Shown here in pieces: positions 20,567-60,568 of a DNA stretch of 64,000 nt (positions within the stretch are counted from its first letter, which is position 1; each line of letters opens with the position of its first letter). The stretch comes from an uncultured Dehalococcoidia bacterium (GTDB lineage Bacteria > Chloroflexota > Dehalococcoidia > GIF9 > UBA5629). The notes under the pieces are model-generated. The model was given only the letters and a program-made list of their open reading frames with translations. It did no database searches and was not told where the DNA came from. The translations under genes and the position numbers were made by a program. The stretch lies in contig CAIYTC010000202.1 in the NCBI GenBank assembly GCA_903929005.1, positions 3,080-67,079 of the forward strand, read 5' to 3'.

Positions 20567-20589
20567 TAACGGCGAATACAAAAATGCCG

Positions 20590-20630
20590 TTGCGAGCCCG
20601 AAGGGCGCGGCAATCCCCGCCGCTTTTGAT
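20590..20630 (+). terminator. Hairpin + T-tract downstream of the desulforedoxin pair; the stem sequence is a short member of the dispersed repeat family
   Basis: 'gcgagcccgaagggcgcggcaatccccgccgcTTTTgatt' (stem gcggc/gccgc then TTTT); core 'cgttgcgagcccgaagggcgcggcaatc' matches the inverted arm of the repeat at 31394-31425. Confidence 0.35.
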
Positions 20631-20687
20631 TAAATTTCTTTTTGTGTGTATTATTAATGTGATATTTTATGTGATGAGGTTATCCCA

Positions 20688-20951
20688 ATGCGTGCGCACA
20701 TTATCCTTGATAACGAAATAGTTAAAGATATCGACAACCTGGTAGGCAAAAGGCGAAGGAGCCGCTTTATCGTGGAGGCGGTGTGCGCTAAATTGAGCCA
20801 GATGAAGCTTCTGATTGCCCTCAAAGAGACAGCCGGCATATTGTCAGGCGAAGATCATCCGGAGTGGAAAACATCCGAAGATGCAGCGAACTGGGTCAGG
20901 GACTCGCGTAAAGGAGACGACCGCCGCCTGAAGGGATTAAAGTTTGGCTAA
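20688..20951 (+). CDS. vapB: VapB-type antitoxin
   Basis: 87-aa ORF overlapping the downstream PIN-toxin gene by 8 nt; GAGGT RBS 7 nt upstream. Confidence 0.5.
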   Translation: MRAHIILDNEIVKDIDNLVGKRRRSRFIVEAVCAKLSQMKLLIALKETAGILSGEDHPEWKTSEDAANWVRDSRKGDDRRLKGLKFG

Positions 20952-21336
20952 ATATCTGCTGGATACAACTATACTGATAGAGCATCTGCGTGGAAAAAAG
21001 CCGGCTGTTAATTTTATCACTGGATTGATGCGGCATGGTCATCGATTGTGTGTCTGCTGTGTTAATATAGCCGAGTTATATTCGGGGCTAAGCCTTGAAC
21101 AGGGTGCTCAAGCAAAATTTCTAATCGATGCGCTGGACTATTGCGATGCAACGCCTGACGCGGCCATGCAGGCGGGTATTTACCGGTATGAATTTGCCCG
21201 CCGGGGCATCAGCCTCTCAGTAACCGATACGCTTGTCGCTGCCATAGCTAAGGCCAACGATGCAATTATCGTGACTGCCAACATCAGGCATTACCCGATG
21301 AAAGATATACAGGCGCAACAATATCCAACCGGCTAA
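20944..21336 (+). CDS. vapC: VapC PIN-domain toxin
   Basis: 'LLDTTILIEHL' N-terminal Asp, 'SVTDTLVAAIA', 'IVTAN.RHY' PIN acidic residues. Confidence 0.7.
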   Translation: MAKYLLDTTILIEHLRGKKPAVNFITGLMRHGHRLCVCCVNIAELYSGLSLEQGAQAKFLIDALDYCDATPDAAMQAGIYRYEFARRGISLSVTDTLVAAIAKANDAIIVTANIRHYPMKDIQAQQYPTG

Positions 21337-21390
21337 GATTGCTTCGCTACGCTCGCAACGACAGTTCAATACCAATATAATTAGGACACT

Positions 21391-23817
21391 ATGTCCCCTT
21401 CCTCAGCATATACCTCGCCGCTGTCCGGCCTGCGCGTCCTCGACCTGACCGATGAGAAGGCTGCTTTTTGTTCGAAGCTACTGGCCGGCCTGGGCGCCGA
21501 AGTGGTCAAAGTTGAACCGCCGGGCGGCTGCCCCTCAAGGCTAACCGGCCCTTTTGTAAATCATCAGCCCGGCGCAGATGGCAGCCTTTCTTTCTGGTAC
21601 GAGAATTCAGGGAAGTCCGGTATCACACTGGACCTGGAAAATAATCAGGACAAGAAAAAACTTTTTGACTTAGTTGCATCCAGCGACGCGTTAGTAGAAT
21701 CTTTCCGGCCCGGCTACCTTGCCGGCATAAATCTCGGCTACAGCGAGCTTTCGGCGGCCAACCCCGGGCTGGTGATGGCATCGGTGACCGGCTTCGGGCA
21801 GTCAGGGCCTTACGCACACTATAAATCCAGCGCGCTCGTCGCCGCGGCCAGCGGCGGGCAGATGTATGTCTGCGGCCACGCTGATAAACCGCCTCTTAAA
21901 CCTTATGGAAGCCAGCCGTATTACCTGGCCTCGCTGTTCGCAGCTACAGGCATCCTGCTGGCTTTGCGCCGGCGCAGCAGTACCGGGAAAGGACAGCATA
22001 TTGACATCTCCTTGCAGGAAGTTACCGCAGCCGCGCTGGAGCACGTGCTGGTGCAGTATTTCTACGGGAATGAGGCGCCCTGCCGGCAGGGTAGCCTGCA
22101 ATGGAACGCTGCGGCAGACCTCTTCCCCTGCCGCGACGGCAACGTGCTGCTGACCTTCGGGCGGGAATGGGACACGCTGGTGGAACTGCTCGGCAGCAGT
22201 GGTATGGCGACCGGCCTGGCGCACCATGCCTGGCGTGGCGCGGATTTCCGCCGGCAGCATATCGGCAAGATACAGGAGATCATAAGCTCCTGGACATGCC
22301 TGCAGGATAGCGGGGAGGTCTTCCGGCTGGGCCAGGATATGCGCTTCCCCTGGGCGGCGGTTAACTCCGTAGAGGACGTATTCAATAATGAGCAACTCAG
22401 GGCGCGAGGATATTTTGTGAAGGCGGAGCACCTGCTGAAGCAGGGAGGGTTCAAAGTCCCGCGGCCCGTCATCAATTTTGCGGACGCGGGCGCACCTGAA
22501 GGTACGCCCCTGCGTTACCAAAAATGTCGTTGCGAGGGTGAGCCGAAGCTGCGAGCCGAAGGCGTGGCAGTCAGCGACGAAGCAATCTGTAGGGGCGGGT
22601 TTTCAAACCCGCCCGAAAACGCGGGATCACATGAAGGTACGCCCCTGCGTGGTGTGCGGGTGTTGGACTTCACCTGGATGCTGGCCGGACCCTATGCCAC
22701 CCGTCTGCTGGCCGACTTCGGGGCGGAGGTCATTAAAGTGCAGTCGAAGCTCACCGCCAGCGGCGCCGAGCAAAATGACACAGGCTATTTTGCCAACTGG
22801 AACCGCAACAAGTTGAGCATCACGCTGGATTTGAGCAGGGCTGAAGCGCGGCAAACCGTGCTGGATCTGGTTGAGAAGTGCGATGTGGTCATGGAGAATT
22901 TCACCCCGCGCGTGATGGAGGGCTGGGGATTGGGTTATAGTGATTTGAAGCGGGTCAAGCCCGATATCGTAATGGTCAGCCTTTCAGGTTTCGGGCGTAC
23001 TGGCCCATGGCGCAACTATGCCGCCCTGGGTCCGACCGTGCAGGCGCTGTCCGGCCTCACGCTGTTGACCTCCTATGATGATGGACGGCCGGTCGGCATC
23101 GGCTTTGCCTATGCCGACCACCTTTCCGGCCTTTACGCGGCGCTGGCAGCCCTTGCAGCCCTGCGGCGCAGGGATAAGACGGGTCAAGGCGCATACGTTG
23201 AGATTTCAGAGCTTGAGGCGGCCTGCAGTACGCTGGGCCCGGCGTTGCTGGACTATTCTGTCAACGGGCGCGAGGCGGGACCCGCGGGCAATAAGGCTGA
23301 ATGGGGGCAGGCTGCCCCCCACGGCTGCTACCGCTGCAAAGGCGATGACCGCTGGTGCGTTATCGCCGTTTTCTCGGAAGACGAGTGGCAATCGCTGTGT
23401 AATGTCATGGGGCAGCCCCAATGGGCGTTGCAGGATAAGTTCTCCTCCGTCCGGTCACGCCTTGAGAATGCGAATGAGCTGGACATATTGATTGAAACAT
23501 GGACGGTAAATTACACACCCCGGGAGGTGATGGGAATGCTGCAGGCAGCCGGCGTCCCGGCCGCGGCGGTCAACGATGCCCGGGACCTGGCAAGTGACCC
23601 TCAGTTGTGTGACAGGGGCCTCTTCGTCGAACAGCAGCACCCGCTGCTGGGTATGATTAAGGCCGACGGCAACCCTATCAGGCTGAGCGCAACCCCGCCT
23701 CAATACAACAAAGCGGCGCCCCTGCTGGGCGAGGATAACCGGCATGTGTTCATCGATATGCTGGGGATGGAAAAAGAAAAGTTCAAAAGGTACGTGGCGG
23801 AGGGGATAATAGCCTAA
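21391..23817 (+). CDS. Tandem-domain family III (CaiB/BaiF) CoA-transferase, 808 aa, with an in-frame repeat-element insertion in the interdomain linker
   Basis: Two CaiB N-terminal signatures: 'LSGLRVLDLTDEKAAFCSKLLAGLGAEVVKVEPPGG' and 'LRGVRVLDFTWMLAGPYATRLLADFGAEVIKVQS'. Confidence 0.75.
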   Translation: MSPSSAYTSPLSGLRVLDLTDEKAAFCSKLLAGLGAEVVKVEPPGGCPSRLTGPFVNHQPGADGSLSFWYENSGKSGITLDLENNQDKKKLFDLVASSDALVESFRPGYLAGINLGYSELSAANPGLVMASVTGFGQSGPYAHYKSSALVAAASGGQMYVCGHADKPPLKPYGSQPYYLASLFAATGILLALRRRSSTGKGQHIDISLQEVTAAALEHVLVQYFYGNEAPCRQGSLQWNAAADLFPCRDGNVLLTFGREWDTLVELLGSSGMATGLAHHAWRGADFRRQHIGKIQEIISSWTCLQDSGEVFRLGQDMRFPWAAVNSVEDVFNNEQLRARGYFVKAEHLLKQGGFKVPRPVINFADAGAPEGTPLRYQKCRCEGEPKLRAEGVAVSDEAICRGGFSNPPENAGSHEGTPLRGVRVLDFTWMLAGPYATRLLADFGAEVIKVQSKLTASGAEQNDTGYFANWNRNKLSITLDLSRAEARQTVLDLVEKCDVVMENFTPRVMEGWGLGYSDLKRVKPDIVMVSLSGFGRTGPWRNYAALGPTVQALSGLTLLTSYDDGRPVGIGFAYADHLSGLYAALAALAALRRRDKTGQGAYVEISELEAACSTLGPALLDYSVNGREAGPAGNKAEWGQAAPHGCYRCKGDDRWCVIAVFSEDEWQSLCNVMGQPQWALQDKFSSVRSRLENANELDILIETWTVNYTPREVMGMLQAAGVPAAAVNDARDLASDPQLCDRGLFVEQQHPLLGMIKADGNPIRLSATPPQYNKAAPLLGEDNRHVFIDMLGMEKEKFKRYVAEGIIA
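22516..22631. mobile_element. MITE-like palindromic repeat copy inserted in-frame inside the CoA-transferase CDS, flanked by a perfect 19-bp direct duplication
   Basis: 'tgaaggtacgcccctgcgt' at 22497-22515 and 22632-22650; interior 'tgtcgttgcgagggtgagccgaagctgcgagccgaaggcgtggcagtcagcgacgaagcaatct' matches the copies at 47924-48019 and 60433-60568; insertion + one duplication = 135 bp (45 codons). Confidence 0.6.
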
Positions 23818-25947: not shown

Positions 25948-25993
25948 GGATGAGACTACTTTATTGTCCGGTCGTTGTGTCCTGCAAGCCCGG

Positions 25994-26353: not shown

Positions 26354-26368
26354 AATTCGTTATGCCGT

Positions 26369-28914: not shown

Positions 28915-29041
28915 GTTTAGCAGTTCAGCCTCCTGATGTTATTCGTAGCCGGCGGCGCTCAGCTTCATTTGTTGCCGGCCGCAACTGCATTGCCATAAGG
29001 CCCTGAACTGAAATGTGATCCTGGTGAAATTGTGTCCAGTC

Positions 29042-31310: not shown

Positions 31311-31425
31311 CACGTCATTGCGAACGAAGTGAAGCAATCCCAGACTCAAACCACGTCATTGCGAACGAAGTGAAGCAATCCTTCGATGGGGGTAGATTGC
31401 CGCGCCCTTTGGGCTCGCAATGACG
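31311..31425. repeat. MITE-like repeat copy: two direct 30-bp units plus one inverted arm
   Basis: 'cacgtcattgcgaacgaagtgaagcaatcc' at 31311-31340 and 31352-31381; inverted arm 'agattgccgcgccctttgggctcgcaatgacg' at 31394-31425. Confidence 0.6.
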
Positions 31426-31500
31426 AGTTAAACGGCCCCCTTGCCTGTGGTTGCCTGAGGGGTATATACTTGCGCATAATCCAAAATAAAGGAGGCAGAG

Positions 31501-33189
31501 ATGAGCGGTACAGATAAGTACGACCTTAAAGCGGTGAAATTGCCGAGGTTTGTGGGGGGGCAACTCTCCATGATCGCCGGCGCACTTGACATCGGCATAC
31601 TCAAGGCACTCCTGCTGCCCTCGATGCTGAAAAGCGGCGGGATAGAGGATTTCCGCGAACTTGTTCCTGAAGAGCCGCCCACCTTTTCCCCCATTTCTTT
31701 TGTGAGTAAGAAAGCGGAACCCGAGGACGGGCCGGACCTGAAGGCGCTGAATAAGATAGAAGGGAACGCTACAGGGGCAATGCACTGCCGGACTATCCGT
31801 GATTATTCAAAGGCCTACCACGATGGCAAAACCACGCCCGAGGATGTGGCCAGGCGCGCGCTGGACGCAATCAAAGGGGCCGACGCGGGTGATCTGAAGC
31901 TGAGGCCGTTTATCGCGGTTAATGAGGGTGATGTCATACAGCAGGCCAAGGCCTCGGCCGAGCGCTGGAAAGATAAAAAACCGCTCAGCGTGCTGGATGG
32001 TGTGCCGGTAGCAGTGAAGGACGAGGTGGACATGGTGCCCTATCCCACCACGGTCGGCACAAGCTTCCTGGGGAAGGGTCCGGCCAGGCAGGACTCCACA
32101 GTGGTGGCGCGGCTGCGCGCGGCAGGTGCCCTGCTGCTGGGCAAGGCCAATATGCATGAGATAGGCATCAGTACCAACGGGCTCAACGTCAATTTCGGCT
32201 CGACCCGCAACCCTTACAATCCCAAGCATGACACGGGAGGCAGCTCGACCGGTTCCGCCACGGCTGTGGCAGCGGGCATATGCCCGGTTGCCGTGGGCGC
32301 CGACGGTGGCGGGTCTATCCGCGTGCCGGCCGCCCTGTGCGGCGTGGTCGGCCTCAAGCCCACCTTCGGCCGTGTCAGTGAATTCGGCGCGGCGCCGCTC
32401 TGCTGGAGCGTAGCACACCTCGGCCCGATCGCGGCCACGGTGGAGGATGCTACCATCGGTTATGCCTGCATGGCCGGTACGGATATTAAAGAACCAAACT
32501 CGCTGCATCAGCCTCCCATGACATTGGAAGGCTGGAACAAGGCAGACCTTAAAGGGATTAAGCTGGGTATTTACAAGCCCTGGCTTGAGCATGCTGCGCC
32601 CGAGGTTGTGAAAGCCTGCAACGCGCTGCTGGAGAAACTGGTTGCTGCCGGGGCGCAGGTCAAGGAGATAGTCATTCCCGGGCTGGACACCATGCGCGTC
32701 GCCCACATCATAAGCTTCCTGAGCGAGGTGGCAGCCTCGATGAACAACTATCCTGACAACAGCAAGGATTTTGGCGCCGAGGTGCGCCTCAGCCTCGCCC
32801 TGGGGCGGGAATTCAACGCCGGCGATTATATCAAGGCCCAGCGCATCCGCACGCGCGTCATCGATATGTTCAAGGATATTTACAAAGAGGTAGACGCCAT
32901 CATCACACCTGCAACGGCTATTGTGGCCCCCGAGGTTTCGCTCGAAGATGCCGATGGCGGCTACTCCGACCTCTCAAGTACCACGGAGACCATGCGCTAT
33001 GCCTTCCCCGCCAACCTGGCGGGCCTGCCCGCCATCAGTTTCCCGGCGGGCTATGACTCCATCGGGCTGCCCATCGGCATGCAGGCCATGGGACGGTGGT
33101 GGGAGGAGAACCTGTTGCTGCGTATTGCCTACAACGCCGAAAAGCTTGTGGAGCGCAGAAAACCGGTAGCCTACTTCGACCTGTTGTAA
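31501..33189 (+). CDS. Amidase-signature-family amidase (FAAH-like, with N-terminal extension)
   Basis: AS signature '[14 protein letters not shown]…[28 protein letters not shown]'. Confidence 0.75.
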
Positions 33190-33431
33190 TGCATAGCGGG
33201 GTCTGTCACAGGGGCATAATATAGGATGGGTCTTTAGACCCGTCCGCGTTATCGGGCGGACATGAATGTCCGCCCCCACAGCAAGCCTGTCAGGGACGAA
33301 TGGAGGGGCGTACTTTCAGGTGCGCCCGTTTTCAGGCGGATTGTTAAACCCGCCCCTGCATCGCATTAAATCGGCCCCTCCTCGCAAAGACGCTTCATTA
33401 GTACTATAATGCGGCCAATGATATTTATAGT

Positions 33432-36639: not shown

Positions 36640-36677
36640 AGATTGCTTCGTCGCCTGCGGGCTCCTCGCAAAGACAT
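36640..36677. repeat. Half-copy (single arm) of the MITE-like repeat
   Basis: 'agattgcttcgtcgcctgcgggctcctcgcaaagacat'. Confidence 0.45.
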
Positions 36678-36683: not shown

Positions 36684-36716
36684 GGCCGGCGGCTGGATAG
36701 AGCCGCCGGCCTTTTA
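36684..36716. terminator. Bidirectional intrinsic terminator between convergent genes
   Basis: 'TTTTTggggccggcggct-ggatag-agccgccggccTTTTac': 11-bp GC stem with T-tracts on both sides. Confidence 0.6.
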
Positions 36717-36722: not shown

Positions 36723-38090
36723 TTACGGTTTGTATGTGATTGTAAGGGCGCCGGCAAGGTCGACATTATCGCCCTCTTTGAGGATGTGCTTGCCCTTGCC
36801 GCGGATATCTGTACCATTCAGCCTGGTGCCGTTGGTGCTGCCACGGTCCTCGATATAGTAATCGCCGTTTTCGTAGCTAATGTAAATATGCTGGCGTGAT
36901 ATTAGATCAGCCTTACCCGGCCCGGCCAGTGCATGGAAATCGTTGCGTCCCAGTGACTGGCCTCCGGCCGCAAGGGAAATCTCCTTCCCTCCGCCCGCTG
37001 TGAATTTGGCCGCGGGACCGGTTGCGACGGCGGTAGTGGCATGTGAACCGGCAGCGGGCAGTGTGGCGGCAGGCACCGTGGATGAAGCTATGTAGCCTGC
37101 CCGTGTGCCGAAGTTGCGCCCTGAATAGGCTGGCACCGGTTTCCTCACCAGCAGGAAGATTATTACTGCAGCCGCTACGGCCAGCAGGCCGATCATCAAG
37201 GCGTACAATAGCCAGAGGTTGAGCGCCGGGCTGCCGCCGCTGCTGACCCCGCTGGTTAATATCCCGCCTGTGCCGGCGGTGTAACCACTGCTGCCGGTAG
37301 TTGTGTTAACACCACTGCCTGTACTGTATGTGGAATAGTACTGTGCTACAGTAACGGTAGTGCCGGCGCTCACGCTGCCCCCGCTGCCGCTGGCTGTAAG
37401 CGTATAGGTGGTTGTATAGGCAGGCGTGGTAGTATAGACACCCGTGCCGGGCACCGAGCCCACCGAGGGCGAAATTGTAACGTCGCTGGCGTTATTCACT
37501 GTCCATGACAGGACGGTGGATTGGCCGGGCTGTATATAGCTCGGGTTAGCAGTGAAGGAACTGATCACCGGCTCATAGACCGGCTGAGGTTGGGGTATCT
37601 CAACTACTATCTCAGGGGTATAAGTATTTACGTAGGGAGACCACCTTGCGTAGGGATATGGCCACACATAGGGATCCGAGTAATATGGGTATGAAGGAAC
37701 AGGTGGGCGGGGATGTGATGGGCCCGGGGGAAAAGGATGATGTCTCGTATGATTCTCTGATGAGGACGCCGGCGACAGATCCACCGTGGAAGGCGGTATA
37801 GCAGCAGGCTCTGTTACAGGGTCAGGCGCAGGAGGAACCGGCAGTTCCGGCGCCAGGTCAGCCGTGGAAGGTGGTGTAGCATCAGGCTCTGTTACAGGGT
37901 CAGGCGCAGGAGGGACCGGCGGCTCCAGCGCATCCGGTGGTGGTGAAACAGGCTCATCATCGGCCTGCCAGGCCAGGCCTTTATCGATTGCCGTGTCCGT
38001 TACAGCCCGGGCGGGCGTAACCGACAGCAAAAACGCAGTGCATATTAACAGTGCTGTTGCCAGGATCAGAGTTGTTTTTCTTAGATTCAT
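36723..38090 (-). CDS. Receptor-like FHA protein 1: signal peptide, Pro-rich repeats, conserved extracellular module + Ig-like domain, 1 TM, cytoplasmic FHA
   Basis: Start trimmed to 'MNLRKTTLILATALLICTAFLL' (RBS AAGGAGA); TM 'LWLLYALMIGLLAVAAAVIIFLLV'; FHA 'ISRQHIYISYENGDYYIEDRGSTNGTRLNG'. Confidence 0.7.
   Translation of the reverse strand: MNLRKTTLILATALLICTAFLLSVTPARAVTDTAIDKGLAWQADDEPVSPPPDALEPPVPPAPDPVTEPDATPPSTADLAPELPVPPAPDPVTEPAAIPPSTVDLSPASSSENHTRHHPFPPGPSHPRPPVPSYPYYSDPYVWPYPYARWSPYVNTYTPEIVVEIPQPQPVYEPVISSFTANPSYIQPGQSTVLSWTVNNASDVTISPSVGSVPGTGVYTTTPAYTTTYTLTASGSGGSVSAGTTVTVAQYYSTYSTGSGVNTTTGSSGYTAGTGGILTSGVSSGGSPALNLWLLYALMIGLLAVAAAVIIFLLVRKPVPAYSGRNFGTRAGYIASSTVPAATLPAAGSHATTAVATGPAAKFTAGGGKEISLAAGGQSLGRNDFHALAGPGKADLISRQHIYISYENGDYYIEDRGSTNGTRLNGTDIRGKGKHILKEGDNVDLAGALTITYKP
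37786..37941. repeat. Tandem 78-bp (26-aa) repeat, 2 copies, in the Pro-rich region of FHA protein 1
   Basis: Units start at 37786 and 37864 ('gtggaagg.ggt.tagca.caggctctgttacagggtcaggcgcaggagg.accggc…'); encodes 'PPAPDPVTEP..PPST.DL' twice. Confidence 0.55.
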
Positions 38091-44390: not shown

Positions 44391-44395
44391 GGGGG

Positions 44396-45646
44396 CTAAA
44401 TCCCGCTCTCTATGCAGTATTCCCTCAGTGTATTCAGCGAGGCGAAGAACTCTTTCATCATCGTGCCGACCGGGAACATGCCCAGCCTCGTGATTGAGAT
44501 GTGGCCGCCTTTCTCTTTAATAATGCCTGCGGCTTTAAAAAAGAGCAGCTCTGTCCACAGCCGGGCATGTATATCAGAGCCAAAACGTTGCTTGAACTGC
44601 ATCGTGTTTAAACTCATGCCGAAGAAGCGCGTAAGCATATAATAACGGTAATGCTCGAGGTCAGATAGGCGGCGCATACGCACGATAGGCAGCCTGCCAT
44701 CTGAAATGAGGCTGTGATAACCTTCCAGTGAGAATGAGTTGACCAGGAAATCGCCTCCCAGGAAGCTGACTGATCCTGCGCCGATGCCGATATAGTCGTC
44801 ATAGTCTATGATGTACTCGTCTATCATCAGGTCGCCGCGGGAAAAGCACCAGGCGGTGGAAGCCTTGTAGCCGGCATCGAGCAATTCAAGCAGGATGATG
44901 TCGTAGAACTGCTTTTCCGGTGAGGTATCAACCCGGCGGAACTTTTTTGTCAGGGCATCGAGCTTGTGCGGGGACGGCATGAGCGGGTAGAAGGTGGCCT
45001 GGTCTGCGCCCAGTTCCTTGAATATCCTGACGTCCGACTTGAACTGCTCCAATGTCTGGGTGGGGAAGTTGAACATGAGGTCGACGTTGACCGTATCGAA
45101 CCTGCCCTGCGCCAATTTAAGCTTCTCTATGGAATCCTCTGCCTTAAACAGTGTCCTGCCCATGGCCTTGAGCAGCGTGTTGTCGAAGCTCTGCACGCCG
45201 ACAGAGAGCCGGTTGACGCCGATGTCCTGGAGCCGCTTTAGCGTATCCGGTGTCAGTTCACGCGGCGTGGTCTCCAACGAGACGCGCCTGACCTCAAACT
45301 GGGAGCGCAGGTGGCCGACAAAATCAGTCAGTTCATCCATGAGCACGGTGGGCGTGCCTCCGCCGAAGTAAAAGTCCTTGAAGCGGAAGCCCGACTCCGT
45401 GTATATGTCCAGCTCTTTGCGCAGGTCCCTGAAATAGCGGCGCGCCAGGTCCTCCCTGAAAAGGTAGCGGTTAAAACAGCAGAAAGGGCAGAGAGTCCGG
45501 CAGAAAGGGATATGGATATAGAGCGAGACGCCGCTGCCGCGTTCGCGGCCTTCGCGGGCGATATAAGCGGCATCGACATCGCCGGTGAACTTAAGGAAGC
45601 TCCTGCCGGAGTGGCGGACAACGGAACCGGCGAACCAGGGTATCAC
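44396..45646 (-). CDS. HemN/HemW-like radical SAM protein (oxygen-independent coproporphyrinogen-III oxidase family)
   Basis: 'LYIHIPFCRTLCPFCCFN' CxxxCxxC radical SAM motif. Confidence 0.7.
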   Translation of the reverse strand: MIPWFAGSVVRHSGRSFLKFTGDVDAAYIAREGRERGSGVSLYIHIPFCRTLCPFCCFNRYLFREDLARRYFRDLRKELDIYTESGFRFKDFYFGGGTPTVLMDELTDFVGHLRSQFEVRRVSLETTPRELTPDTLKRLQDIGVNRLSVGVQSFDNTLLKAMGRTLFKAEDSIEKLKLAQGRFDTVNVDLMFNFPTQTLEQFKSDVRIFKELGADQATFYPLMPSPHKLDALTKKFRRVDTSPEKQFYDIILLELLDAGYKASTAWCFSRGDLMIDEYIIDYDDYIGIGAGSVSFLGGDFLVNSFSLEGYHSLISDGRLPIVRMRRLSDLEHYRYYMLTRFFGMSLNTMQFKQRFGSDIHARLWTELLFFKAAGIIKEKGGHISITRLGMFPVGTMMKEFFASLNTLREYCIESGI

Positions 45647-45860
45647 GGGGTAAATTATACCGTATCACCCTCTCCCCTGCCCCATCTCCTTGAAAGGAGC
45701 GCCGTGCGTACTATATTGTACACACGGTTTTCTTTGTGCGATATATGCGTGAACCGTGTTGAAAAGGGCGTGACTGATCAGGTAACTGAAGAAAATGGGG
45801 TGCGGATACATCCCCCACTAAAGTACTACATAAAACTACCTGATTAAGTACTAACAGGTC

Positions 45861-46148
45861 ATGTTCAACGGCCTTAATATACAGTGTTACCCTGGGCAAG
45901 GCTACCCATCCCCTGATGGGCATCATAGCCGAAGACATCAAGCCGCCGCTGCTGGGCTGAAGGTGAAAGATATCATACTGCGCATCAATGACCGTGAGGT
46001 GAATACGCTGTCCGATCTAACCAGGATATTATGGCGAATGAACGCCGGTGATGTAATCCGGCTAAGCTGCCAGCGCGGGACAGAGACGGTGTTGCTAACC
46101 GTAAAGCTGGCAACCAGGCCAGACGACAAACCCCTGGCTGAGCTTTAA
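45861..46148 (+). pseudogene. Isolated, frameshifted C-terminal PDZ-domain remnant of an HtrA-like protease
   Basis: ORF frame 'AAAAGLKVKDIILRINDREVNTLSDLTRIL…GDVIRL…TVKLATR' is PDZ-like; the preceding PDZ strand 'LMGIIAEDIKPPLLG*' is in the +1 frame (shift within 'gccgccgctgctgg'); no protease domain upstream. Confidence 0.35.
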
Positions 46149-46338
46149 CGCTGCTTTGAAATCTCCGGCCCGGGGATCTGCCGCCATTTAAGCAAGCGCT
46201 TTTAAATATAGAGGATGCACTTCCGGGTTGTCTCTTAACGGCTCGTGATCACAAGCTTCCAATTCCACCCCAACTTGAAACGTTTATACGTCGAACAGCT
46301 ATAATAACCGTTATGAATACGCTCCGGGGCAGCCGCTA

Positions 46339-46908
46339 ATGTATCTGCTGGCACACGCCGGCATCACCGTGGGGGCAGCCTACACCGCGGAGAAGGCTAT
46401 TAACTGGCGGCGCATGGCAGGCACAGTGCCCCCTGCCAGCGCGCCTCTGCGTGTCGATTACCGCGTCATCCTGCTGGGTGCCCTGCTGCCTGACATTATC
46501 GATAAGCCCCTGGGGTTGATACTGCTGCCCGGCGTCCTGGCCAATGGACGCACCTTCCTGCATACCCTGCTCTTCCTGCTGCTCACCCTGCTGGCCGCCG
46601 TAATGATCTACCGGCAGCAGCGCAAGCTGTGGGGTTTTTACGTCGCCTTCGGCGTGCTCATGCATTTCAGCCTGGATGCCATATGGACCGACCCCGTCAC
46701 CTTTTACTGGCCCTTGCTCGGCGCCTTCCAAACCCAGCCCGGGATTACCTTCTTATGGGTAGTGCAAAGCTGGATACAGAGCTTCCGCGAGGAGCCCCGC
46801 CTCTATATACCCGAAACCGCCGGCTTCATCATCCTGTTATTTTTCACCGCCAGGCTGATAATACAGAAGGAAGTCACAGCCTTCATGCGGCAGGGCAGGC
46901 TGTGCTAA
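46339..46908 (+). CDS. Membrane-bound metal-dependent hydrolase (DUF457/YdjM-like)
   Basis: 'MYLLAHAGITVGAAY…LLGALLPDIIDKPLG' N-terminus typical of the family. Confidence 0.45.
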   Translation: MYLLAHAGITVGAAYTAEKAINWRRMAGTVPPASAPLRVDYRVILLGALLPDIIDKPLGLILLPGVLANGRTFLHTLLFLLLTLLAAVMIYRQQRKLWGFYVAFGVLMHFSLDAIWTDPVTFYWPLLGAFQTQPGITFLWVVQSWIQSFREEPRLYIPETAGFIILLFFTARLIIQKEVTAFMRQGRLC

Positions 46909-47029
46909 TACTGACAATAAGAAAGGATGTAATAAACGTCATGATATAACCTGTTGCGGAATCCCGCTATTTTATGCACAATAAGCAGGCTGTATTTCAG
47001 GACACAAAATTCACCAAAGGAGCTTCATT

Positions 47030-47914
47030 ATGGATAACGTTCTGGTCATCGGCGCAGGCTTCATGGGCGGCGGAATCGCACAGGTGGTGGCCCAGGGTGG
47101 TTACACTGTTTACCTGCAGGATATAAACCCTCAATCGTTGGAAAAAACTATGGCGCAGATTAAATGGTCGACGGAGAAACTGGCCGGCAAGGGAAAGATC
47201 AAGGACAGCGCTAAAACAGTGCAGGACAGGATCAACGTGGTGAAAGACCTTGCCATCGCGCCCCAATGCCAGTGGGTCATCGAGGTGGTCTTTGAAGATG
47301 AGAATATGAAGAGGGAGCTCTTCAAAGAACTCGACGCCGCCTGCCCGGTTGAGACTATCCTGGCTTCCAACACCTCCAGCATACCCATAACCCGCCTGGC
47401 ATCGCTGACCAGGCACCCCGAAAGGGTGGCCGGGCTGCACTTCTTCGGCCCGGTGCCCATGATGAGACTGGTAGAGGTTATCAAGGGAGAGAAAACATCG
47501 GATGCCGTTTTTAAAAAAAGCGTGGATTTCATCAACTCCATCGGCCAGTACCCTGTTAAGGTCATGAAGGACATACCGGGATTTATCATGAACCGCATCA
47601 ATGGCGTGGCCTTCCGCGAGGCGCTCTCCCTGGTGGAAAATGGCATCGCCACGGTCGAGGACGTCGATAAAGGCATGCACTACGGCTTCAACTGGAACAT
47701 CGGCCCCTTCGAGATCGCCGACAACGCCGGCATCGATACCTACGTGCGTGTGGGCAGGTCATTCGCGGCGCTGGGCGCCGGCGATATTGTAGCTGCCTCA
47801 CCACTAATGGAGAAAATGCTCAAGGCCGGGCGATTGGGCCGAAAAGTAGGCAAGGGGTTCTATGATTACACTCCCGACGGGAAGCAGGTACCTTTTGACA
47901 TTAACACGCTGTAG
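47030..47914 (+). CDS. hbd: 3-hydroxyacyl-CoA (3-hydroxybutyryl-CoA) dehydrogenase
   Basis: 'VLVIGAGFMGGGIAQV' Rossmann fold, 'NTSS' catalytic region. Confidence 0.8.
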   Translation: MDNVLVIGAGFMGGGIAQVVAQGGYTVYLQDINPQSLEKTMAQIKWSTEKLAGKGKIKDSAKTVQDRINVVKDLAIAPQCQWVIEVVFEDENMKRELFKELDAACPVETILASNTSSIPITRLASLTRHPERVAGLHFFGPVPMMRLVEVIKGEKTSDAVFKKSVDFINSIGQYPVKVMKDIPGFIMNRINGVAFREALSLVENGIATVEDVDKGMHYGFNWNIGPFEIADNAGIDTYVRVGRSFAALGAGDIVAASPLMEKMLKAGRLGRKVGKGFYDYTPDGKQVPFDINTL

Positions 47915-47923
47915 TTAGGCGAC

Positions 47924-48019
47924 TGTCATTGCGGTGAGCCGAAGCTGCGAGCCGAAGGCGTGGCAATCTGTCCGAGGTGAGTAGATTGCTTCGTCGCTGC
48001 GGCTCCTCGCAAAGACAGT
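47924..48019. repeat. MITE-like palindromic repeat copy (both arms) between convergent hbd and hlyIII
   Basis: 'tgtcattgcggtgagccgaagctgcgagccgaaggcgtggcaatct'…'agattgcttcgtcgctgcggctcctcgcaaagacag'. Confidence 0.6.
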
Positions 48020-48044
48020 ATTAAGATAAGGACCGCCACGACAT

Positions 48045-48692
48045 TTAACTTCTGATAGCAAAATAGATCACCAGGTAATGCAGGACCGCACCCGTGATTA
48101 CCAGCAGGTGGAAGATCTCGTGGAAACCGAAGACTCCCGGGAAGGGGTTGGGTTTCTTGATCGCGTAAAACACCGCCCCCAGCGTATAAGCCAGGCCGCC
48201 GCCCAGGAGCAGCCATAGCGAATTCAAGGGCATGGATACCAGCAACTGGTTCAAAGGGATAATCAGCATCCAGCCCATTGCGACGTAGATTGCCGTGGTC
48301 AGCCAGCGCGGGCCATGTATGTAAACGAGCTTAAAAACCAACCCCAGGATGACCAGCAGCCACTGCGCGCCGATGATGCCCCAGCGCCACCAGCCGTCCA
48401 AGTAGATATAGCATATAGGCGTATATGTTCCCGCTATCATGAAGAAAATGGCTATATGGTCCAGCCTGCGCCAGGGGTTGCGCTCATCTTCACCGGCTTT
48501 CTGCCCGTGGTAAACAGCGCTGCAGGTAAAGATAAAGACGGCACACAGGCTATATATGCTGGATAGAACGGCCCTGGTTATAGAGCCGGAGGAATTGCAC
48601 AGCAGTACGAGATAACCGGCCAGCGACGCTGCCGCTCCCAGCAAATGGGAATAGAAGTTCACCAAATCAGATTTTTGAAACGCCATGTCCAT
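48045..48692 (-). CDS. Hemolysin-III / PAQR-family membrane protein
   Basis: 7-TM; 'FHEIFHLLV' C-terminal His motif; N-terminal 'NFYSHLLGA'. Confidence 0.6.
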   Translation of the reverse strand: MDMAFQKSDLVNFYSHLLGAAASLAGYLVLLCNSSGSITRAVLSSIYSLCAVFIFTCSAVYHGQKAGEDERNPWRRLDHIAIFFMIAGTYTPICYIYLDGWWRWGIIGAQWLLVILGLVFKLVYIHGPRWLTTAIYVAMGWMLIIPLNQLLVSMPLNSLWLLLGGGLAYTLGAVFYAIKKPNPFPGVFGFHEIFHLLVITGAVLHYLVIYFAIRS

Positions 48693-48697
48693 CTCCT

Positions 48698-49207
48698 TCA
48701 GTAAGCCATCCAGGACCTCAGCCGGGGTACCCAGCGCGGCACGTTCTTGGTATAGGTTATATATTCCTCGCCGAACCTTTTCTGCAGCCCGGGCTCCTCG
48801 GAAAATACGAAGTAAATATGGTTAATGCCGAAAAACAGCGCGAACCACATGAAAATGCCCACTGAACCGAAGGCGATCGATTCTCCCAGCAGGGTCAGCA
48901 GGACACTGGATATCATAGGGTTGCGCACATGGCGGTAAGGACCGATGATGACCAGCTTTTTGGCAGGTGACCAGGGCGCCAGCGTACCCTTGCCGATATT
49001 TATGAAAAGCCCGATGGTCATGAACAGGTAGTAAAGCCCGTTCCCCATCAGCACCGAACCCGCCAGCACGATCACGGCATCCCAGGGCATCCCTAACCCC
49101 CAGCCAATCCTGAAGCCAGTTGCCCACAGTATGCCCGCCGGTATGATCAGCAGCACCGTGAACGGCAGGATAAACGACCTCAACTGGCTAATAAATGATT
49201 CTTTCAC
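48698..49207 (-). CDS. ICMT/PEMT-family membrane methyltransferase
   Basis: 'RHVRNPMISSVLL…GESIAFGS' and 'EEPGLQKRFGEEY' SAM-binding tail. Confidence 0.55.
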   Translation of the reverse strand: MKESFISQLRSFILPFTVLLIIPAGILWATGFRIGWGLGMPWDAVIVLAGSVLMGNGLYYLFMTIGLFINIGKGTLAPWSPAKKLVIIGPYRHVRNPMISSVLLTLLGESIAFGSVGIFMWFALFFGINHIYFVFSEEPGLQKRFGEEYITYTKNVPRWVPRLRSWMAY

Positions 49208-49238
49208 TCAAACCTGCCTGTGTGTCTGATTTCATCCT

Positions 49239-50087
49239 ATGATAGCATTAAACGGCGGAAACGACATTTCGCGTGATACAATGACAGACATGAAGTCCGG
49301 CCTCATCCACTGCGGGGATTGCCTTGTCAAGCTGAAGTCTTTCCCTGCTGAGTGCGTCGACCTTATCTATATCGACCCGCCCTTCAATTCCAACCGCAAC
49401 TATAGCGATACCGGAAACGAAAACGATAAAAGGCAGTTCGCAGATAAATTTGAGAACGTCGCCGCCTATATTGCTTATATGAAACCGCGCCTCAAGGAGC
49501 TGCACCGTGTCTTGAAGCCGACCGGGAGCTTCTACTATCACTGCGACTGGCATGCCTCACATTACGTCAAGGTGCTGCTGGATGGCGGGGACTTATTCGG
49601 CTACGGCAACTTCCAGAATGAAATAGCCTGGTGTTACCGATCGGGAGGGGCCAGCCCTAAAAAACGCTTCTCGCGCAAGCACGATGTTATCCTCTTCTAT
49701 TCCAAGACCGCCGGTTATACATTCAACGGCCTACGTGAGAAGTCCTATAACCGCGGCCTTAAGCCGTACCACTTCCGGGGCGTCAGTGAATTCCAGGATG
49801 AGGCCGGTTGGTACACGGATGTTGGGATGAAAGACTACTGGGAGATAAACATGGTAGGCAGGACCAGCCGTGAACGCCTGGACTATCCCACGCAAAAGCC
49901 CGAAGCCCTGCTGGAGCGCATCATCAGGGCCGGCAGCAACGAGGGCGATATTGTGCTGGATGCCTTCTGCGGCAGCGGTACCACCCTGGCCGTGGCCCAA
50001 AGGCTGAAGCGCAGTTGGATCGGCATAGATGTCTCCCCGGCGGCCTGCAATCTGACCAGGCGGCGACTAAACAAGCTTCAGCTATAA
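49239..50087 (+). CDS. Beta-class N6A/N4C DNA methyltransferase, apparently solitary
   Basis: Motif IV 'IDPPFNS' precedes motif I 'LDAFCGSGTT'; no adjacent endonuclease candidate. Confidence 0.7.
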   Translation: MIALNGGNDISRDTMTDMKSGLIHCGDCLVKLKSFPAECVDLIYIDPPFNSNRNYSDTGNENDKRQFADKFENVAAYIAYMKPRLKELHRVLKPTGSFYYHCDWHASHYVKVLLDGGDLFGYGNFQNEIAWCYRSGGASPKKRFSRKHDVILFYSKTAGYTFNGLREKSYNRGLKPYHFRGVSEFQDEAGWYTDVGMKDYWEINMVGRTSRERLDYPTQKPEALLERIIRAGSNEGDIVLDAFCGSGTTLAVAQRLKRSWIGIDVSPAACNLTRRRLNKLQL

Positions 50088-52264: not shown

Positions 52265-52282
52265 CCGGGTGCGCCCCAGTAA

Positions 52283-52639: not shown

Positions 52640-52676
52640 AGCTGCACCGCCTGCCTGTTATTTTACTGCCTTTGCC

Positions 52677-54209: not shown

Positions 54210-54220
54210 AGAACACCCCT

Positions 54221-56660: not shown

Positions 56661-56674
56661 CGGTTTACATAGCG

Positions 56675-56704
56675 ATTATACGGCTTTTACAGCGTCACGG
56701 TCAA
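56675..56704 (-). promoter_or_regulatory. Sigma70-like promoter of purF-purM-purH (near-leaderless)
   Basis: Coding-strand 'TTGACC-18 nt-TATAAT', then 14 nt to the purF ATG; no RBS. Confidence 0.4.
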
Positions 56705-56816
56705 TGTATTGAACATACCGCCAAGGACACGGTCAGGCTGCCCCGTAACGGCCGGGCTTACGGCGGGCAGCCCCACACCTCCGTCCGAGAGTTATTGGTC
56801 TCGCCAGATTCACTAA

Positions 56817-58190: not shown

Positions 58191-58301
58191 TTCCCTGCCT
58201 CCTGTTATCGAATTTCAATAAGTTGTTGCTACTGTGTCAATAATTTACCATAACAAAACACACCTGTCCAAAACGAATATTAATAGCCGCCTGCCAACCC
58301 G

Positions 58302-59069
58302 TCAGGCTACTGCTTTTATCAGCCACTGCGTGGCCGCGTCGATAGCCCGCTGGTCCTGCCGCAGCCTGTGCCCGGCGCCGGGCAGTATGGCCAGATCTTT
58401 CGGCTGGCCTGCTTTTTCAAACAGCTTCCCGGCGTGCGCGACAGGAACTACGTCATCCTGGTCGCCGTGCACCAGCAGCAGCGGCTTCGGCGTTATTTTA
58501 TCAATATATTCTATGGGCGCGATTGTTTTGAATCCATCCAGCCATTTCTCCACCGAGGGAGGGAAGTCCGCATCTTTGATTATCCCGATATCCCTGAACC
58601 TGCTGATCAGCGAGTCCGCTGTCTGGCCGCCGGCCATGAAGTCAAATCTCGCCGGGCAGGCCAACGTGGCCACGGCATACACGCGCTTGTCTTTAGCGGC
58701 GGCATAAACGCAGACAGCCGCTCCGCCCGATGAACCGAGCAGGCAAATCCTGTTTTTATCCACCTCGGGCAGCATCGCCAGGAAGTCGATAGCGGCTGCC
58801 AGGTCGTGAGTCCAGTCCAGCATGTCGATATTGCCCTGGCTGGGACCGCAGCCGCGGAAATTGAAGGCCAGCGCCACGAAGCCGACCCGGCAGAACCTGG
58901 CAGCGAGTTCGGGATAACCGCCTTGCTCCCCCGGGTTATACGGGACAGCCGGTATGCCGTGGCACAGGCAGACGGCCGGGTAGATCCTGTTGCATTCCTC
59001 CGGCAGGAAAACCTCTCCTGACAGCATCATTTCGTCAGCGCACAGTATAACCGCCGAATGTCTCATCAT
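58302..59069 (-). CDS. Alpha/beta-fold hydrolase (dienelactone hydrolase / S9-like)
   Basis: Nucleophile elbow 'LLGSSGGAAV'; 'LLVHGDQDDVVP', 'GAGHRL'. Confidence 0.65.
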   Translation of the reverse strand: MMRHSAVILCADEMMLSGEVFLPEECNRIYPAVCLCHGIPAVPYNPGEQGGYPELAARFCRVGFVALAFNFRGCGPSQGNIDMLDWTHDLAAAIDFLAMLPEVDKNRICLLGSSGGAAVCVYAAAKDKRVYAVATLACPARFDFMAGGQTADSLISRFRDIGIIKDADFPPSVEKWLDGFKTIAPIEYIDKITPKPLLLVHGDQDDVVPVAHAGKLFEKAGQPKDLAILPGAGHRLRQDQRAIDAATQWLIKAVA

Positions 59070-59692
59070 TTGATAACTCCCAACATTAATAACGCCAGCA
59101 GTCCCCAGGATAGCACGGCCAGCGCCAGCCAGGCAGCCTTGTTCCAGCGCAGTATCTTGACGCCGTCCAGCGGCGGGAAGGGTATCAGGTTGAAAGCCGC
59201 CAGCCAGAGGTTGACCTGGAACCCGAAATTGCCTACCATGCTCCAGATATCAGCATAACCTGTACCAATAGCCAGCAGGTAGAAGAGTCCCGCCAGCGCG
59301 ATATTGGTCAGCGGGCCGGCGGCCGAGATGAGCCCCTCCTCAGTGGGGTCGGGTGTCTTATACGTGGATGTGTAAACCGCGCCGGGGGCAAAGAAGAGGA
59401 ACCGCCCGAAGCTGAGCAGGGCGGAGGCCACGGCTATGGCCAGCCCCATCTTCCACATGCGGAACTCGGCATGGTAGCCGCAGCGCTGCGCCACTCCCTT
59501 GTGCGCCAGTTCATGGCAGACGAAGCCCGTGCCGATGCCTATCAGGGCCACGCCGAAATTAACCGCGAATTTTTCAAAGGATAGCAAATACGGGATGCCG
59601 CGGTTGGGAATCAGGTACTGCAGGGAGAAACAGAAACCCAGCGACATCCAGCAGATGGCCAGGTCGCGCAGCTCAATTTTACTGAAGCTCAT
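59066..59692 (-). CDS. M50-family (site-2-protease-like) membrane metalloprotease
   Basis: 'CHELAHK' HExxH and 'FNLIPFPPLDG' LDG motif. Confidence 0.65.
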   Translation of the reverse strand: MSFSKIELRDLAICWMSLGFCFSLQYLIPNRGIPYLLSFEKFAVNFGVALIGIGTGFVCHELAHKGVAQRCGYHAEFRMWKMGLAIAVASALLSFGRFLFFAPGAVYTSTYKTPDPTEEGLISAAGPLTNIALAGLFYLLAIGTGYADIWSMVGNFGFQVNLWLAAFNLIPFPPLDGVKILRWNKAAWLALAVLSWGLLALLMLGVIK

Positions 59693-60420
59693 AATTCCAG
59701 CGGCCTCAGGTGAATGAGGAACTCCCGGTTGCCCTCGGCGCCCAGTATGGGCGAGGCCGCCAGGTTGAGCAGGCTCAGGGCATGCTCATTCATCCATATT
59801 ACGAAATTGCTGATGGTTTTAGCGTGGATAGCCGGTTCCCTGATCACGCCTCCTTTGCCCACGTCCTGCTTAGCCGCCTCGAACTGCGGTTTGAAAAGTA
59901 TCAACATCCCGCCGCCCGCTTCAAGGTGGGGCAGCACGTTGGGTATAACACTGCTGACCGATATGAAGGAAAGGTCCAGGGTGGCCAGGCTGATCTTTTC
60001 CGGCAGGCCGAAGGGATAATGCGCGTTGACTTTCTCCATGACAGCCACCCGGCTGTCATGCCTCAACCTGTAATCGATTTGCCCGTAGCCGACATCGAGG
60101 GCATAAACCTTCTCAGCGCCGTGTTGCAGCAGGCAGTCGGTGAAGCCTCCCGTGGAAGCCCCCACGTCTATGCAGGCCAGGCCTTTGACCTCAATCCCGA
60201 ATTCCTGCAGTGCGTGAGCCAGCTTCAGCCCGCCGCGGCTTACGTAGGGCATCCTGGCCTTCATACGCACGTCCGCGTCTGCCGGCACCGCGTTGCCGGC
60301 CTTGGTCATCACACTGCCGTTTACGCTCACCTCGCCGGCCATGATGGCCGCCTGGGCTTTGATCTTGTTTTCAGCCAGACCCCTGTCGACCAGCAGACTA
60401 TCTAAACGTTGTTTAGGCAT
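59689..60420 (-). CDS. tlyA: TlyA-family rRNA 2'-O-methyltransferase (S4 + FtsJ domains)
   Basis: 'RLDSLLVDRGLAENKIKAQAAIMAGEVSVNG' S4 domain; 'CIDVGASTGGFTDCLLQHGA' SAM motif. Confidence 0.8.
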   Translation of the reverse strand: MPKQRLDSLLVDRGLAENKIKAQAAIMAGEVSVNGSVMTKAGNAVPADADVRMKARMPYVSRGGLKLAHALQEFGIEVKGLACIDVGASTGGFTDCLLQHGAEKVYALDVGYGQIDYRLRHDSRVAVMEKVNAHYPFGLPEKISLATLDLSFISVSSVIPNVLPHLEAGGGMLILFKPQFEAAKQDVGKGGVIREPAIHAKTISNFVIWMNEHALSLLNLAASPILGAEGNREFLIHLRPLEL

Positions 60421-60432
60421 AATGAAACCAAC

Positions 60433-60568
60433 GTGTCATTAGATTGCTTCGTCGCTGCGCTCCCTTTTACCTGTCATTGCGAGGCCGCCGCAGCGGCCGC
60501 GGCAATCTGACCGTTAGTGGCGTAATGCCTACAGATTGCTTCGTCGCCTTCGGCTCCTCGCAATGACA
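60433..60568. repeat. MITE-like repeat copy (extra half arm + full inverted pair)
   Basis: 'gtgtcattagattgcttcgtcgctgcgctccc'…'ctgtcattgcgaggccgccgcagcggccgcggcaatct'…'agattgcttcgtcgccttcggctcctcgcaatgaca'. Confidence 0.6.

Follow-up and report, generated by a model that had tools for sequence, protein, structure and literature searches.

What are the short, hairpin-forming repeats that recur among the genes of an uncultured Dehalococcoidia bacterium, and which enzyme, if any, recognizes them? The question arises from a 64,000-nucleotide stretch of contig CAIYTC010000202.1 (hereafter the window), part of a Chloroflexota metagenome-assembled genome (MAG) in which the repeats occupy spacers among metabolic and housekeeping genes. 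An earlier note on this DNA had described them as a dispersed family of 100- to 140-bp palindromes resembling miniature inverted-repeat transposable elements (MITEs) or repetitive extragenic palindromes (REPs). Our analysis suggests that they are probably single-stranded DNA (ssDNA) hairpin motifs of the class comprising CGTC-tagged REPs and Ssn-related motifs (SRM), recognized by a GIY-YIG nuclease of the Ssn clade. That this clade recognizes units of the ATTGCGAG type is well supported by association, as judged from comparative sequence data. The nuclease gene, ssn, normally lies between two such units (unit-ssn-unit), and we regard the repeats in the window as gene-less relatives of that arrangement, dispersed in housekeeping spacers.

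The repeats are more numerous and smaller than first described. The arm AGATTGCTTCGTCGC has five exact matches in the window and seven at up to three mismatches, where 1.77 would be expected, and none of 100 shuffled sequences reached seven. All six copies listed in the earlier note were found where it had placed them, but repeat searches and intergenic self-BLAST raised the count to 13 CGTC-type units or part-units at 8 loci. Two of these, on the minus strand, had been overlooked (the unit at 21336-21363 and half of one at 33378-33392), and what had been called a half copy at 36640-36677 is one complete single unit. The true repeating unit is about 26 to 50 nt long, and the stretches of 100 to 140 bp each comprise an inverted pair or a small array of such units. 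Units stand alone, in inverted pairs whose tails face each other, or intermixed with other hairpin repeats in mosaics.

Each unit reads, from 5' to 3', as an unpaired YGTC tag, an ATTGC stem, GA, G, an optional second GA layer, and an apical hairpin, followed by (GA), C, GNR, GCAAT, and a C-Y tail. The basal stem is 5 bp long (ATTGC/GCAAT) and carries one or two purine-rich internal loops in which GA lies opposite GNR. The shortest form, of 26 nt, has a GC-GAA-GC mini-hairpin as its apex, replaced in longer forms by G+C-rich apical stems of any sequence; the apical helix spans 2 to 9 bp and the total length 26 to 63 nt. Every complete unit in the window keeps YGTC(A/G/T)T...GCA(A/G)TC, with heads of TGTC or CGTC (a single degenerate head is TGCC), stem variants that include GTTGC and TTTGC, and tails of CT or CC. 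Subfamilies of units also share 8 to 14 nt of 5' flank, such as CCAAAAAT ahead of GTC.

Gap-free alignments of the 38-nt and 32-nt units revealed covariation in the apex: 6 of 7 and 3 of 4 apical pairs, respectively, change on both sides, and 91% and 95% of helix cells are paired, a level that none of 500 shuffles matched and that fell far lower when the register was slid. The apical hairpin is free in sequence, with its pairing kept. Inverted pairs fold as long hairpins well above shuffled controls (z = -4 to -6.5), and single short units, with z about 0 in the nearest-neighbour model, are indistinguishable from shuffles.

The family extends well beyond the window, as the earlier note had anticipated. 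An exact scan for GTCATTGCGAG-N(8-38)-GCAATC matched at least 120 stretches in species-representative contigs (one genome per species) and at least 120 more in viral contigs, and the counts that follow refer to the matches listed. The same unit ends occur in more than 15 bacterial phyla, in a span that takes in Alpha-, Beta-, Gamma-, and Deltaproteobacteria, Campylobacterota, Chloroflexota, Bacteroidota, Cyanobacteria, and Melainabacteria, as well as Firmicutes, Negativicutes, Planctomycetota, Nitrospirota, Patescibacteria, Zixibacteria, Armatimonadota, Ignavibacteria, and others. Among 209 units, GTC is preceded by C in 100 and by T in 96, and GCAAT is followed by C, then Y, then C or A. Copies from Bradyrhizobium, Micavibrio, sphingomonads, and Rickettsiales carry a CCA tail and take the form CGTCATTGCGAGCGAAGCGAAGCAATCCA; the alphaproteobacterial copies read CGTC...GCAATCCA, in line with a description published in 2013. 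Adjacent pairs have their tags outward in 45 of 60 cases, separated by spacers of mostly 15 to 32 bp whose ends are often complementary, and divergent intergenic spacers are depleted (12, against 36, 35, and 25).

The association with a nuclease surfaced only by asking what sits between two unit tails that face each other 250 to 2,500 bp apart. In an Oscillospiraceae contig (L081) and a Planctomycetota contig (L097), the answer was a protein of about 95 amino acids with a GIY-YIG domain (Pfam PF01541), and in a viral contig (L206) a homologue lies between NTS-type CGTCATTCCCGCGCAGGCGGGAATCCAG units. Nucleases of this family have been named Ssn, and an association between ssn genes and hairpins was already reported (Chenal et al. 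2025, Nat Commun 16:2388; PMC11893778). A protein search returned about 8,000 relatives. In all eight loci (L081, L097, L343, L348, L349, L351, L352, and L353) of the clade that shares 67 to 74% identity with the L097 protein, ATTGCGAG/GTTGCGAG units are present at most 150 bp from the gene; in seven of them, as read from the sequences, they stand on both sides of it. These eight include a Chloroflexi MAG, where the ssn gene sits within a dense unit array, and an Anaerolineales MAG. At 19 viral loci picked by protein similarity alone, nearly all of the genes are bracketed by inverted (Y/G)GTC hairpins, the stem type of which differs from locus to locus. Ssn-family proteins bracketed by the ATTGCGAG type are 43 to 49% identical to the L206 protein, which is flanked by canonical NTS units. 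The earlier note had proposed looking for a cognate transposase elsewhere; there is a cognate enzyme in other genomes, but it is this nuclease of about 95 amino acids and no transposase. No NCBIfam model matches it, and its sole sequence relative in the PDB is the uncharacterised UPF0213 protein BH0048 (1zg2, E = 3.6e-4).

Several ssn loci have further features of their own. In other genomes ssn is enclosed by restriction-modification genes (hsdR/hsdM, or a methylase with ResIII) or by uvrB and uvrA, or follows just after a NurA gene (L348 1501-1797, L353 501-794, L352 501-788, and L351 501-791); such neighbourhoods may hint at a link to defence or repair loci. At L343 870-2080, the Chloroflexi MAG has long-form units of about 110 nt with a large apical insertion, which recur several times around ssn. 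In L081, a gene-less inverted pair stands next to the ssn-bearing pair (6444-6913 versus 6943-7057), with shared spacer ends of ..AACA..GTACCGGGAGATTGCC, and from its sequence the gene-less pair looks like an internal-deletion derivative.

A derivative of this kind is also what would be expected if the repeats were MITEs, that is, if the palindromes of 70 to 140 bp were internally deleted insertion sequences (IS) of the DDE-transposase kind, moved in trans by way of their terminal inverted repeats. Inverted pairs do share identical outer ends (TGTCATTGCGAG...CTCGCAATGACA) and fold as long hairpins. However, 76 inverted pairs gave no sign of a target-site duplication, with flank matches at k = 2 to 8 occurring at chance level; single units and head-to-tail arrays are common, and the unit that is copied is a single hairpin. 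We found no IS with matching ends and no transposase family recurring near units at the 120 bacterial and 120 viral loci listed, where clustering of open reading frames (ORFs) returned only generic families at the former (ABC ATPases, SDRs, and response regulators) and only phage structural proteins at the latter. Nor was a transposase found by Pfam among window proteins from 43.7 to 63.4 kb or in precomputed Pfam calls from 21.4 to 43.5 kb (the ORFs at 1 to 21 kb were not scanned directly). The gene between units encodes a GIY-YIG nuclease and not a DDE enzyme. We consider MITEs extremely unlikely. Of the double label in the earlier note, the REP-like half stands, given the tag, stem start, tail, dimers, and intergenic placement, and the MITE half falls with the missing duplications and matching IS.

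Orientation provides a different kind of evidence. Within viral contigs, neighbouring unit clusters are co-oriented in 31 cases and opposite in 3, with some contigs all-sense and others all-antisense relative to transcription. Summed over loci, there is no preference (41 sense and 30 antisense at bacterial loci; 15 and 24, respectively, at viral loci). Such viral co-orientation fits a strand-specific process acting on DNA, not a role in RNA, and agrees with the strand specificity of Ssn on ssDNA; its source could be insertion bias or counter-selection. At the viral loci (L204-L323; for example, L232, L235, L211, and L276), units of the ATTGCGAG type are mostly single and often lie in structural-gene modules.

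These data bear directly on the possibility that the hairpins work as RNA, stopping transcription at gene 3' ends or shielding mRNA from exonucleases; RNA roles for REPs were proposed in 2013 (PMC3733652). Units do lie mainly downstream of genes, with few in divergent, promoter-bearing spacers, and they have stable folds with conserved pairing. Against such a role stand the lack of any orientation preference with respect to transcription, the copies inside an ORF and antisense in phage structural modules, and the finding that SsnA does not bind the RNA form of its hairpin (PMC11893778). The earlier note had placed the repeats often next to terminator hairpins, which holds at 36684-36711 (read directly) and at 20607-20623; elsewhere it does not. 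Terminator-like sites show no overall enrichment at units, and no T-run follows them. Rfam covariance models gave no matches at gathering score over the whole window and none at E <= 10 over a unit-rich 1.26-kb stretch, so that no known structured RNA family was matched; a match of that kind is what the earlier note had named as refuting its claim. An RNA-level role seems to us quite improbable, though the hairpins may have a secondary effect on mRNA.

Strand bias is well established in ssDNA transposons of the IS200/IS605 group. The phage co-orientation resembles it, which raises the question of whether these are classical REPs or REPINs, mobilized as ssDNA hairpins by a REP-associated tyrosine transposase (RAYT, an HUH Y1 enzyme) encoded elsewhere in the genome. 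The design is alike, with a tagged hairpin, inverted doublets, and no target duplication, and GTAG-tagged doublets, the kind associated with RAYTs, reside in the window and intermix with the CGTC-type units. The tag here, however, is YGTC rather than GTAG, the 2013 survey found no RAYT or IS200 gene flanked by CGTC units (PMC3733652), and the gene that the ATTGCGAG type does flank is ssn. We therefore think mobilization by a RAYT unlikely.

Recognition by an Ssn nuclease has its own difficulties, and we set them out together as the points that speak against our interpretation. The published SRM pattern, HGTCWYN(0-2)YYVSBRHN(0-5)WNVSBRGN(0-2)RNCYNB, has no match on either strand of the window, though it does match a canonical NTS control, and it matches 0 of 264 distinct units of the ATTGCGAG type; because of this, the family is assigned to the Ssn-type motifs by its head, tail, and gene association and not by the published search definition. 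The stems of 8 to 9 bp and loops of 4 to 5 nt described for CGTC-tagged REPs (PMC3733652) are likewise absent from a unit whose basal stem has 5 bp. Basal-stem invariance among the collected units is not independent evidence, because the search pattern itself required ATTGC/GCAAT and so partly imposed it. Single units in the window point +, -, +, -, and -, and are thus not co-oriented. Searches by tblastn and by profile turned up no ssn, whether gene or pseudogene, in the window or its syntenic contigs L123-L125, although Ssn-family genes are encoded by other Chloroflexota. Finally, insertion calls for more than a nuclease for which no joining activity is known.

With the unit defined, the repeats of the window can be placed individually (Table 1). 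The earlier note had put all copies outside the coding sequence at gene 3' ends or between convergent genes. Two loci (36640 and 47924) are indeed between convergent genes, but five lie between co-directional genes, and the remaining one is inside an ORF. It had also described two identical 30-bp direct units at 31311-31381, which are present as repeat family D19 with a 41-bp period, and two spurious ORFs created by the repeats, 31315..31785(-) and 47926..48216(-), both of which appear in the ORF list.

Table 1. Repeat units and associated features of the window, by position (nt); units are of the CGTC type unless described as GTAG-tagged
Feature	Coordinates	Strand	Remarks
Single unit, degenerate head, TGCCGTTGCGAG-CCCGAAGGG-CGCGGCAATCC	20585..20616	+	Tail abuts left end of vapBC cassette; 96% complementary to unit 31394-31425 (repeat family I7)
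vapBC cassette	20617..21335	+	vapB about 20688-20948, vapC 20944-21336; PIN domain by Pfam
Single unit, AGATTGCTTCGCTACGCTCGCAACGACA	21336..21363	-	Overlaps vapC stop codon
GTAG-tagged hairpin A (GGGCGCACCTGAAGGTACGCCC + CTGCGT)	22484..22515	-	Within CoA-transferase linker; families D18, I5
Unit with nested/swapped apical segment, plus tail half AGCGACGAAGCAATCT	22525..22588	+	Family D14; in-frame reading ...QKCRCEGEPKLRAEGVAVSDEAIC...
GTAG-tagged heterodimer C-A (GTAGGGGCGGGTTTTCAAACCCGCCC, spacer, second A)	22589..22650	+	In frame, CRGGFSNPPENAGSHEGTPLR; families I4, D18
Two identical head-to-tail units (CGTCATTGCGAACGAAGTGAAGCAATCC)	31313..31381	+	41-bp period; family D19
Unit	31394..31425	-	Inverted pair with unit 31354-31381; pair fold -18.3 kcal/mol, z = -3.95
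GTAG-tagged C-A heterodimer, reverse orientation	33299..33360	-	Second superfamily; families I4, I5
Head-half remnant of unit (CTCCTCGCAAAGACG)	33378..33392	-	
Complete single unit	36640..36676	-	Between convergent genes; separate terminator-like hairpin 36684-36711 next to it
Inverted pair, tags outward	47924..48017	.	Units 47924-47969 (+) and 47983-48017 (-); -24.7 kcal/mol, z = -4.1; between convergent 3-hydroxyacyl-CoA dehydrogenase and HlyIII genes
Four-piece array	60434..60568	.	Head fragment 60434-60441, truncated reverse unit 60441-60464, inverted pair 60472-60508 (+)/60533-60568 (-); -31 kcal/mol, z = -6.5; between SDR and FtsJ-like genes, both minus strand

The composite of truncated unit, linker, and unit that makes up the array at 60434 occurs twice more in L123. 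Another locus that connects the window with its relatives is the vapBC cassette, which fills exactly the space from one tail to the other of two inverted units. The syntenic contigs L124 and L125 lack it, and L123, L126, and L133 have it; in L127 and L128 its genomic surroundings are different, and homologous unit tails bound it there too. The same search for facing tails that led to ssn recovered vapBC in the related contigs L123, L126, and L127.

The copy inside a coding sequence proved to be composite. The earlier note had read 22516-22631 as one element of the family; one CGTC-type unit is there, and the remainder consists of three GTAG-tagged hairpins of a second superfamily. The host ORF, 21391-23817 (808 aa), encodes two fused CoA-transferase family III domains, an architecture common in Chloroflexota, and the repeat mosaic forms its interdomain linker, in frame and with no stops. 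In this mosaic, hairpin A (GGGCGCACCTGAAGGTACGCCC, whose foot is CTAC-like) precedes the CGTC-type unit, after which come hairpin C (GTAGGGGCGGGTTTTCAAACCCGCCC) and a second A. Modules A and C carry GTAG or GCAG feet and belong to a family distinct from the YGTC-tagged units. The C-A heterodimer (GTAGGGGCGGGTTTTCAAACCCGCCC, spacer, GGGCGCACCTGAAGGTACGCCCCTAC) is intermixed with CGTC-type units and found at 22589-22650 and 33299-33360, as well as at 9773-9850 and 19345-19420 in L124. Because this GTAG-tagged dimer recurs outside the coding sequence and in related contigs, at least two superfamilies of hairpin repeats inhabit the source genome. Among 30 orthologues, the linker is polymorphic module by module, holding A only (P0006, checked in the DNA), C-A only, or the series A, short unit, C, A; in more distant orthologues the linker sequence is unrelated.

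Repeat content also turns over rapidly between close relatives. In plain spacers, contig L124 and the window are about 98% identical, yet their spacers that bear repeats are wholly different, from which it follows that repeat content changes much faster than point substitutions accumulate. The spacer between the nitroreductase and amidase genes contains three CGTC-type units in the window, a GTAG dimer in L124, and at least four head-to-tail units with a 41-bp period in L123, and upstream of the CoA-transferase gene the spacer is different in each of the four related contigs. The close relatives compared offered no clean empty site, as the same spacer holds different repeats there instead, so insertion boundaries are not definable. 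The contigs of the same species, L001 and L002, are identical to the window at the repeats and hence uninformative on presence or absence.

Turnover of this sort invites an explanation without a dedicated enzyme, in which units spread only through slippage at replication, gene conversion, and homologous recombination, a proposal made for the NIME arrays of Neisseria (PMC1797815). Whole repeat sets are replaced between genomes that are about 98% identical, and relatives differ in the copy number of head-to-tail arrays with the 41-bp period. Distant units also swap apical segments, as in family D14, where the 36-nt apical part of the linker unit (22537-22572) is 97% identical to 47933-47968, an identity that points to exchange between the two. 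Such processes leave unexplained why a near-identical tag, basal stem, and tail are found in more than 15 phyla while the apex drifts, and why a specific nuclease gene has its own unit type on either side. We give them a low probability as the source of the repeats; slippage, conversion, and recombination probably contribute to turnover rather than compete with recognition by a nuclease.

A model built on that nuclease would run as follows. The source genome would encode an Ssn of its own, capable of cutting the ATTGCGAG type, and this enzyme might introduce ssDNA breaks during replication or DNA uptake. Repair of such breaks by copying or recombination between units could then give rise to arrays, nested units, and swapped apical hairpins, and could capture cargo such as the vapBC cassette. 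We know of no link of the repeats to surface-protein genes or natural transformation in this organism. A bolder version holds that a pair of ATTGCGAG-type units together with ssn is an active mobile element that crosses phyla, moving as ssDNA by means of a GIY-YIG nuclease rather than a transposase, with gene-less pairs as its non-autonomous forms, vapBC as cargo, and phages as strand-specifically colonized carriers. We regard that version as rather doubtful, and list beside it the shared spacer ends in L081, the vapBC tails in at least two contexts, the fast turnover, and the 31:3 ratio in viral contigs.

Other features of the window deserve a brief record. Two further short G+C-rich palindromes, GGATGGGTCTTTAGACCCGTCC and GGGCGGACATGAATGTCCGCCC, lie at 33224-33246 and 33254-33275, in the same spacer as the heterodimer at 33299-33360. 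Tandem desulforedoxin-like minigenes (20271-20390 and 20423-20566; Pfam Desulfoferrod_N) are 74% identical in DNA over 72 nt, and their products in relatives have 39 and 47 aa. A cluster at 36.7-43.5 kb encodes three FHA proteins, a Ser/Thr kinase, a PP2C phosphatase, and another FHA protein, and one FHA-domain gene contains a 78-bp tandem repeat (37769-37931; 2.1 copies, 87% match). The only content of a 692-bp spacer at 45647-46338 is a small 95-aa ORF. GC skew changes sign near 46-48 kb (peak of cumulative skew; region about 44000-50000), though the flanking genes are mostly on the minus strand, and this switch may mark a replication terminus or origin. A literature search with literal sequences returned only unrelated primer matches. 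Among candidate identities for the repeats, integron attC sites were dropped for want of RYYYAAC/GTTRRRY boxes at the unit ends and K-turn RNA on strand arithmetic that does not fit; Correia, ERIC, and BOX elements were dropped as well, as was a primase priming signal, which was speculation only.

Hairpins such as these create spurious ORFs, break metagenome assemblies, and mimic small RNAs or MITEs, and recognizing them as Ssn-type motifs avoids mislabelling. The ATTGCGAG type is among the most widely spread of unit types and may provide a further pair of enzyme and site for ssDNA tools. For the question of how repeats multiply, the co-orientation in phages, the vapBC cassette between units, and the replacement of whole repeat sets in genomes about 98% identical all provide leads.

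Among known systems, the closest is that of the Ssn nucleases themselves. SsnA of N. meningitidis binds the 28-nt NTS hairpin, which contains dRS3, as ssDNA only and on one strand only, and it cleaves a few bases upstream of the hairpin; cutting depends on the three bases before the palindrome, and binding on the C after it (PMC11893778). Binding and cutting of one ssDNA strand are reported for the Neisseria and Wolbachia types, neither RNA nor double-stranded DNA is a substrate, and transformation with NTS-bearing DNA is about five-fold higher once ssnA is lost (PMC11893778). Ssn homologues are mostly flanked by SRM, and the authors likened NTS-ssnA-NTS to an insertion sequence (PMC11893778). 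The repeats here are like these motifs (PMC11893778) in being oriented hairpins of 20 to 50 nt with HGTCWY at the 5' head and a C directly following the palindrome, both of which our units have, in reaching hundreds of copies per genome, and in the unit-ssn-unit architecture. In other genomes the flanked gene is a small single-domain GIY-YIG gene, assigned on the basis of Pfam PF01541, not cd10448. They differ in the ATTGCGAG..GCAAT stem, the internal loops, the free apical hairpin, the Chloroflexota host, and the absence of ssn from the window. Neither Chloroflexi nor phage genomes are mentioned in that paper, and the 2013 REP paper is not cited there (PMC11893778). The ATTGCGAG type in Chloroflexota is an addition to the known class, and because the SRM pattern misses so widespread a type, the published counts of association between Ssn and its motifs are probably underestimates.

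The 2013 paper (Di Nocera, De Gregorio & Rocco; PMC3733652) had defined a superfamily of CGTC-tagged REPs, with families CGTC-1 to -4, that includes Neisseria dRS3 (in CGTC-1) and Rickettsia RPE-4 and RPE-6. It reported CGTC units from five phyla, Chloroflexi not among them, noted atypical loops in Bradyrhizobium CGTC-1, and named no cognate enzyme or dedicated transposase (PMC3733652). Likeness to this superfamily (PMC3733652) extends from the CGTC or TGTC tag, the stem that starts A-T then T-A, and the short CCA-like tail to the prevalence of inverted dimers, often with complementary spacer ends, in spacers between unidirectional or convergent ORFs, and further to in-frame intragenic copies and coexistence with GTAG repeats. 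Our units have the tag (CGTC, with TGTC or CCTC allowed), the stem start, the tail, the dimers, and the placement, with no transposase recurring near them, and our exact-pattern matches include genera treated in that paper, namely Bradyrhizobium, Micavibrio, sphingomonads, and Rickettsiales (PMC3733652). Since dRS3 belongs to CGTC-1 in the 2013 scheme and is contained in the NTS of 2025, the orphan CGTC REPs can be tied to Ssn nucleases.

Three further systems offer partial parallels. REPs, REPINs, and BIMEs of E. coli and Pseudomonas likewise consist of tagged ssDNA hairpins in inverted doublets and mosaics, lack target duplications, and have a cognate gene flanked by its own repeats. There the tag is GTAG and the enzyme an HUH tyrosine transposase, in contrast to YGTC and a GIY-YIG nuclease, and REP families are usually genus-specific, whereas the unit ends described here are common to many phyla. 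In the NIME of Neisseria, where dRS3 units lie between RS modules (Bentley et al. 2007; PMC1797815), tagged hairpins also separate short modules, arrays vary in length and content among close relatives, and genes are caught between units, but the stem sequence is another and the arrays here are short. Rickettsia palindromic elements are also repeat modules read in frame, with no stops, in a functional gene; they are found at domain surfaces, whereas in the CoA-transferase of the window a single linker between domains holds a stack of several modules, drawn from two superfamilies, that vary among orthologues.

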